Shown: one piece after another, positions 58,492 through 59,951 of the stretch | Numbering within the stretch: the first letter of the stretch is position 1 | Layout of the letters: every line of letters starts with the position of its first letter | From: Lama glama | Lineage: Eukaryota | Assembly (NCBI GenBank): GCA_028534125.1 | Contig: CM052816.1 | Coordinates: forward strand, 69,938,001 to 70,002,000 | Length of the DNA stretch: 64,000 nucleotides | Direction of reading: 5' to 3' | Notes under the pieces: model-generated | What the model was told of the DNA's origin: nothing | Seen by the model: only the letters and a program-made list of their open reading frames with translations | The model's database searches: none | Made by a program: the position numbers and the translations under genes

Positions 58492-59649
58492 ATAGAAAAG
58501 CAGGATGCTACAAAAATGAGAAACTCGTAACTGGAAAGGTGATAACTACCATGAATTCCAAATAGAATAAACACAAAATTGTAAAAGACGACATCTAAAT
58601 CATTAAGAGTGGGAGAGGGAAGCAAGGAAAGCCACTGTGGAAAACAGTATGGAGAGTCCTGAAAAGACTAGGAATAGACTTACCACAGGACCCAGGAATC
58701 CCGCTCCTGGGCATATATCCAGAAGGAACCCTACTTCAGAAATGACATCTGCACCCCAATGTTCATAGCAGCACTATTTACAATAGCCAAGACATGGAAA
58801 CAGCCTAAATATCCATCAACAGCTGACTGGATAAAGAATAGGTGGTATATTTATACAATGGAATACTACTCAGCCATAAAAAATGACAACATAACGCCAT
58901 TTGCAGCAACATGGATGCTCCTGGAGAATGTCATTCTAAGTGAAGTAAGCCAGAAAGAGAAAGAAAAATACCATATGAGATCATTCATATATGGAATCTA
59001 AGAAAAAAACATAAATACAAAACAGAAATAGACTCAAAGACATAGAATACAAACTTGTGGTTGCCAAGGGGGTGGGGGTAGGAAGGGACAGACTGGGATT
59101 TTAAAACGTAGAACAGATAAACAAGATTATACTGTATAGCACAGGGAAATATATACAAGATCTTGTGGTAGCTCACAGCAAAAAAAAAATATATATATAT
59201 GTATGTTCATGTATAACTCAAAAATTGTGCTCTACACTGGAATTTGACACATTGTAAAATGACTATTACTCAATAAAAAAAGTTAAAGAAACAAGTAAAA
59301 GTGTCACTAAATTATTAACACTATTCATAAGATGTATCTTAAACTAATAATATATAGCTTGGGGACCATGCTAAGAGTGATCACAGTGTCAGCCATTTTT
59401 ATCTAATAAATAGTACTCTGAAAGAGCCTGTTCTTACAGTTTACTGTTCTGGGCCACGATTATATATAAATAATATACTATGGAGGTCTATATCATTGAA
59501 CATAGTGGTATCTACACAAATGGTCTCAAAAAGTATTGTCATAAAGCGTACTGTATATAAAAGAGTTTGAAAATCAGCATATTTAAAAGGAAAAGCTACA
59601 TAGAAAAAGAGAGTTGAAAATACTACTCAAATTAAACCAATGTACTCAC

Positions 59650-59822
59650 GTTGATGCCCAACCCATCAAAGGATTTTCCCATCTCTCTCTGGTATCAAAC
59701 TCCATCTTCCATTTCTTCGTGTTGCTTACTCCAGACTGCATGTTATTGCGAGCAGGAACAAAGATCCTTACTTTTCTAGTTTTGATATGCTCTTCTGGAA
59801 CGCCCGTTAAAGTAGTAATATC
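59650..59822 (-). CDS. NDUFS4: NADH:ubiquinone oxidoreductase subunit S4, exon 3 (173 bp; exon number by homology to the human gene)
   Basis: The reverse complement translates to [57 protein letters not shown](T), matching NDUFS4 from about residue 60. Acceptor TTTTTCCGTAG|GAT, donor CAAC|GTGAGT. Confidence 0.98.
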
Positions 59823-59848
59823 CTACGGAAAAACAAGCAAATGTGTTT

Positions 59849-59951
59849 TTTTTTTTAATTTTTTTATTGAGCTATAGTCATTTTACAATGTTGTGTAAAA
59901 TTCCAGTGTAGAGCACAATTTTTCAGTTATACATGAACATACAAAAATTCA
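59849..59951 (-). mobile_element. ~100 bp L1 3'-end insertion with AATAAA and A-tail, just upstream of the exon 3 acceptor
   Basis: The reverse complement reads GTATGTTCATGTATAACTG...GACTATAGCTCAATAAAAAAATTAAAAAAAA. TSD core CAAATGTGTTT at 59838-59848 and 59955-59965. Confidence 0.92.

Follow-up and report, generated by a model that had tools for sequence, protein, structure and literature searches.

Exon 3 of the llama NDUFS4 gene lies between two separate L1-family insertions that face in opposite directions, each with its own target-site duplication, and the resulting inverted repeat is predicted to pair in the pre-mRNA. We favour the view, with a probability of about 0.55, that this is a chance L1 pair and a tolerated by-product of retrotransposition rather than a regulatory switch. 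The two insertions form a ~95-nt inverted repeat around exon 3; according to this view its arms would pair in some pre-mRNAs and give rise to some A-to-I editing and to trace skipping or circles; the trace products would then be removed by NMD or dilution. All positions refer to the window, i.e. the whole stretch of 64,000 nt that was analysed. The features that matter to the argument are the following, in the direction of NDUFS4 transcription.

59955..59965, minus strand: target-site duplication of the short insertion, upstream copy, perfect, 11 nt
59849..59954, minus strand, sense to NDUFS4: 5'-truncated L1-family 3' tail, 106 nt, forming the upstream arm, with AATAAA at 59868-59863 and an A-rich tail
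59838..59848, minus strand: target-site duplication of the short insertion, downstream copy, 11 nt, covering the exon 3 acceptor from -26 to -16
59823..59841, minus strand: acceptor of exon 3 (AG) with its pyrimidine tract, in which 14 of the 19 bases from -22 to -4 are pyrimidines; outside the long stem
59650..59822, minus strand: NDUFS4 exon 3, 173 nt, not a multiple of 3, AG/GT bounded, donor AAC/GTGAGT
59198..59294, plus strand: 3' tail of the long element, forming the downstream arm; its final few bases run into the duplication
56375..59288, plus strand, antisense to NDUFS4: L1-derived element of 2.9 kb with 5' UTR, broken ORF1, spacer, ORF2-like end and 3' UTR
47867..47940, minus strand: NDUFS4 exon 4, 74 nt, carrying the stop that exon 3 skipping puts in frame

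An initial annotation of this DNA had aligned 59201-59280 by hand with the reverse complement of 59860-59942 and counted 76 identical bases out of 80 with one 3-nt gap; global alignment reproduces these figures exactly (76 matches, 4 mismatches, 3 gap positions). The full arms are longer, about 95 nt: blastn within the window pairs 59200-59294 with 59943-59847 at 89.8% identity over 98 columns (E 7e-32), and a second repeat search of the window recovers them as two adjacent inverted pairs. The extended arms leave a loop of 551 nt, within which the AG/GT-bounded exon (59822-59650, minus strand) lies with both of its splice sites, as had been described. The distance of ~38 nt given for the upstream arm is correct for the shorter arm of the initial annotation but not for the extended pairing, which reaches to 24 nt before exon 3; the downstream arm begins 356 nt past the donor on the transcript. 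No further inverted matches were found between 59823-64000 and 48000-59649, no Rfam families in 56000-61000, and no matches to a 26-nt arm pattern in metagenome contigs.

Judged from the sequence, the similarity of the arms is far beyond chance and is explained by shared retroelement ancestry, in keeping with the L1 origin that had been proposed for both. Local duplication or foldback was considered as the origin of the repeat and rejected, since a separate duplication and tail belong to each arm. Five sequencing runs (one organism, two studies, one run possibly the source sample) contain 0.90-0.94 of 100 sampled words of 59300-60300, which argues against an assembly artefact in this interval and says nothing about the insertion junctions; of the 24 runs that the search listed, 14 with smaller word shares (0.17-0.54) were left out of use.

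The short insertion bears features of TPRT, namely an 11-nt duplication (11/11 identical), a poly(A) signal, an A-rich tail and 5' truncation; its 5'-most ~10 nt do not align with the long element. Two nucleotides ahead of the perfect duplication there is a T run and then AGAAA, a sequence that was compared with the TT/AAAA-like consensus of L1 endonuclease sites. The element is placed 26 nt upstream of exon 3. Since the downstream copy of the duplication makes up acceptor positions -26 to -16, the final 26 bases of the intron would be the same as before the insertion; the intron sequence beyond the duplication has been displaced 117 nt upstream. New to the acceptor region are an AATAAA at -46, an AG at -50 and two motifs that resemble the branch-point consensus, TTAAA at -33 and TGAC at -56.

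What the initial annotation overlooked is that an insertion in the branch-point zone with a sense AATAAA could act without any stem. A displaced branch point, the AATAAA and the additional AG might on their own cause some intronic polyadenylation or cryptic acceptor use; downstream of the AATAAA come an A run, a CA and a U-rich tract, and the motif is predicted to be open (0.84) until the second arm has been transcribed. We nevertheless consider such an independent effect improbable, given that the last 26 intron bases are unchanged, that TTAAA at -33 in the tail lies at the usual branch distance, and that the U-rich downstream element would overlap the U2AF site. There is precedent for such an effect: the dog SILV SINE is believed to displace the branch sequence (PMC13756887), and in the mouse Ndufs4 fky allele a B2 insertion in exon 3 results in skipping (PMC6466679). 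Dog SILV merle, HCRTR2 and mouse Ndufs4 fky resemble the llama locus in that the insertion occupies the branch-point zone or the same exon of the same gene. However, they are disease or phenotype alleles, whereas here the acceptor keeps its last 26 bases intact and camelid proteins are annotated at full length.

Folding of the 851-nt transcript gives an MFE of -234.4 kcal/mol compared with -170.9 +/- 6.9 kcal/mol for shuffled sequences (n=20; z -9.25), and a stable stem enclosing exon 3, as the initial annotation had supposed, is predicted. For the arms alone the predicted duplex energy is -112.8 kcal/mol; 71 of 100 arm bases are predicted to pair at P>0.9, in helices of 19-26 uninterrupted pairs. 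All of these figures are protein-free equilibrium predictions. The stem had been described as AT-rich and short, and rightly: arm GC is 23-26%, and its ~95 bp compare with 220-297 nt in the TBXT models. As regards accessibility, transcription of the second arm is predicted to lower the unpaired probability of AATAAA from 0.84 to 0.00 and that of the -33 motif from 0.93 to 0.43, and the pyrimidine tract is predicted to be unaffected (0.49 vs 0.50). In this model the stem would bury the AATAAA of the insertion and TGAC at -56, not the native pyrimidine tract.

Whether the arms meet at all in cells is a separate matter. Pairing could be blocked by exon definition and by hnRNPs that coat the U-rich antisense tail, in which case the repeat would have no effect. 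Arms that are 551 nt apart and poor in GC make this conceivable; the predicted helices speak against it, and near, young inverted pairs are typical ADAR substrates, hence we regard a complete lack of pairing as doubtful. LINE-1 elements account for 9% of the predicted inverted duplexes in humans (PMC13019944) and not all repeats work in circularisation assays (PMC4201285), both of which fit a locus without a stem.

The predicted burial of AATAAA invites two further interpretations. The antisense tail might act as a suppressor, masking the poly(A) signal and the cryptic AG and letting an otherwise harmful insertion 26 nt from the exon become fixed. The shift in AATAAA accessibility at a constant pyrimidine tract is what such masking would look like in a folding model, but the signal would already be silenced through U1 protection and competition from U2AF, and the arms show no excess conservation; we rate this interpretation as very improbable. 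No literature on poly(A) masking by inverted L1 was found in a search outside which most subscription papers lay. Also improbable is a camelid-specific RNA switch in which the antisense tail, by pairing with the sense tail in the branch-point zone, hides the poly(A) signal and the branch candidates, and in which transcription speed or ADAR would set the split between full-length mRNA, NMD-bound skipped mRNA and circle, thereby tuning a complex I subunit.

The consequences of skipping follow from the exon structure. Exon 3 encodes NDUFS4 residues 60-116 (protein match E 3e-35; PF04800). Exon 2 falls outside the window, and the phase comes from the camelid proteins on record: exon 3 opens with the codon for the D of ...EKL-DITT and would hence start at a codon boundary. 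Exon 4 begins GGC TGA, exon 5 is located near 30130, and the stop in exon 4 ends 68 nt before the last junction. Stops more than 50-55 nt upstream of the last junction generally trigger NMD. The initial annotation had put forward this NMD geometry for the exon 3-skipped transcript, and the 74-nt exon 4 with its GGC TGA start bears it out, the phase being deduced from the proteins. Exon 3 is present in all five camelid NDUFS4 proteins fetched, which documents its inclusion and cannot show a lack of skipping. The protein searches used exon 3 as the query and proteins of at least 101 aa as targets, so an exon-3-skipped product would be undetectable by them. Splice-site strength was judged by eye.

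Several observations touch on the NDUFS4 protein itself. At residue 92 in exon 3 (59724-59726, minus strand) the window encodes GVSNTKK where the annotated proteins of Camelus and Vicugna read GVNNTKK; among 186 fetched proteins with this motif 176 have N and none has S. The serine, near the Met87 loop facing the Fe-S clusters, is a private variant, a species difference or an assembly error. Intron 4 contains, at ~44770-44740 (minus strand), near 44765, a short alternative last exon that belongs to isoform X2 (150 aa) in the Camelus and Vicugna annotation; at its junction the window would encode E where the Camelus and Vicugna proteins have D. Finally, NDUFS4 isoforms of ~120 aa ending in ...GWASTMEL are annotated in many mammals (P0002, P0007 and others; two sequences were read), which suggests that exon 4 skipping is a widespread annotated isoform.

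The initial annotation had linked the inverted repeat to a possible regulation. On this loop-out reading, as in TBXT, the stem would loop out exon 3 and bring about measurable lineage-specific skipping, NMD and a lower NDUFS4 dosage, with a 173-nt circle on the side. The precedent it invoked is sound, since inverted retroelement pairs around exons are documented by the TBXT loop-out and the back-splicing literature (PMC10901737, PMC4201285). The predicted stem encloses both splice sites, and the premature stop is 68 nt upstream of the last junction. Tbxt exon 6 is skipped in the presence of non-Alu reverse-complement pairs of 220-297 nt (PMC10901737), and deletion of a single Alu changes PSI by ~1 to >40% in seven reporters (PMC13019944). 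Yet the llama stem is AU-rich and one third to one half as long as those of TBXT, poly(A) stretches and G-U pairs can inhibit circularisation (PMC4201285), and 173 nt, albeit possible, is short, at the low end of the medians of single-exon circles (169-253 nt; PMC6376117). Modest tuning would also do little, since in one reported family people heterozygous for a missense or a frameshift NDUFS4 allele had no symptoms (PMC7699753). With arms that lack extra conservation and a stem shorter than in the TBXT models, a skipped isoform or circle at a meaningful level is unsupported; complex I dosage tuning via exon 3 is likewise possible but unsupported, and we deem the loop-out scenario as a whole unlikely.

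The comparison with known systems points to both likenesses and differences. As in TBXT AluSx1-AluY (PMC10901737) and in genome-wide inverted Alu skipping (PMC13019027, PMC13019944), opposite-facing copies of one family reside in both flanking introns and the predicted stem traps the exon. Unlike in these systems, the copies are L1 tails, the stem is AU-rich and ~95 bp long compared with ~300 nt, one arm comes within 24-26 nt of the exon, and skipping would shift the frame. Short-repeat back-splicing (PMC4201285; PMC8516420) shares with this locus arms that exceed the 30-40-nt minimum and are near both splice sites; here, in contrast, there are branch-point candidates in the upstream arm, and its terminal A run is a feature that inhibited circles in plasmids; the exon is also short.

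The divergence and the placement of the arms are compatible with a chance pair. The arms diverge at 4 of 80 positions, or 5% (CI 1.4-12%), which in a single genome and over 80 bases is a weak test; a neutral estimate of ~4% is implied by the 90.6% identity of the ORF1 protein of the long element to P0121. The two values match, and therefore there is no sign of selection for pairing. At assumed densities of one copy per 32, 64 or 300 kb and with a round figure of 180,000 exons per genome, inverted pairs within 500 nt on both sides would be expected at 22, 5 or 0.25 exons per genome; if one arm must lie within 50 nt, the expectation falls to 2, 0.5 or 0.02. The window holds two near-identical L1 tails and one older tail at 70-75%; the highest assumed density is biased upward because the window was flagged for this very pair. 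In the alpaca, no TE family is reported to have a divergence below 1% (PMC3183009), and these TE ages fit insertions that are millions of years old.

Under the tolerated-pair reading, which we favour, exon 3 would usually be recognised before the second arm has been transcribed, since that arm starts 356 nt after the donor, and the branch point would be either TTAAA at -33 in the tail or an A in the duplication. Strong skipping would probably have been purged, because loss of human NDUFS4 causes recessive Leigh syndrome (PMC7699753). Studies of other repeats agree with a small effect: stem stability hardly separates skipped from constitutive human exons (d = -0.12), with a correlation only in exons with weak acceptors (PMC13019027), inverted B elements in the mouse show no association with skipping (PMC13019944), and TE-driven circles have been described as by-products (PMC8516420). 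Together with the separate duplications, the unchanged acceptor and the neutral divergence, these are the points for a tolerated pair, to which the probability of about 0.55 refers. It also takes into account the points against, i.e. the strong stem, its unusual closeness to the exon, considering that Alus are depleted within ~100 nt of exons (PMC13019027), and the finding that 30-40-nt repeats are long enough to drive circularisation in plasmids (PMC4201285). Skipping was seen in 11 of 11 hominoid exons flanked by Alu pairs, which were selected for annotated skipped isoforms (PMC13019027).

Inverted-repeat loop-out is an already described mechanism; the locus is real and neatly placed, without evidence of function. 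No earlier report of it was found in literature on NDUFS4 (camelids, exon 3 skipping, circRNA, NMD) or on camelid HAL1, in a search that left most subscription papers outside. If the pair has no measurable effect, the locus shows that a ~95-bp stem reaching to 24 nt from an exon can be tolerated. If a measurable effect exists, the locus would be a natural, very short, non-Alu example of loop-out by retroelements, affecting a central gene of respiration in animals whose metabolism attracts interest; as a compact minigene it would also lend itself to tests of whether pairing across the branch-point zone favours skipping or hides a poly(A) signal.

The long element downstream of exon 3 is not a whole L1, as the term plus-strand L1 in the initial annotation would imply, since nearly all of ORF2 is missing. 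It is flanked by a duplication (56364-56374 and 59289-59299, 10/11 identical) and begins with a 5' UTR of ~1.2 kb that, read antisense, matches L1 sequence inside a Camelus dromedarius gene model (P0148, E 5.6e-23). ORF1 (57582-58491) matches PF02994 and PF17490 and is disrupted by three frameshifts and one or more stops; the dead protein has P0121 as its nearest relative. A junction at 58631, 140 nt after the ORF1 stop, leads into the final ~370 nt of ORF2-like sequence, to 59001; the catalytic domains of ORF2 are absent. In older copies within the window, at 24.2 kb and 50.5 kb, GTGCAG precedes the point that corresponds to 58631, which makes splicing and a microhomology deletion possible origins of the junction.

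By its sequence the long element is half-L1-like. HAL1 elements are reportedly the half-L1 elements defined by Bao and Jurka in 2010. The resemblance consists of a 5' UTR, an ORF1 and a 3' tail without coding capacity for endonuclease and reverse transcriptase, whereas the retained ~370 nt of the ORF2 end set the element apart; as a single copy, it may represent the integration of one spliced or deleted L1. Nothing on the family was found in PMC6726744. As separate observations, the position of the junction at GTGCAG suggests integration of a spliced L1 RNA, and ORF1 variants of the element are common to P0121, P0124 and P0249, hinting at a subfamily.

The window holds other repeats as well. 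An older relative of the L1 tail at 23538-24206 (minus strand), ~74% identical to the long element and in sense orientation in intron 4, carries AATTAA instead of AATAAA. Fragments of old L1s, 65-75% identical to one another and lying in either orientation, are found at 50400-55700, 11700-15300 and 6770-8310, and some of these form weak inverted pairs across exon 4. Self-BLAST also reveals, at 16144-16261 and 40898-41508, a 60-nt tandem duplication (96.7%) and an inverted pair of ~220 nt at 72%.
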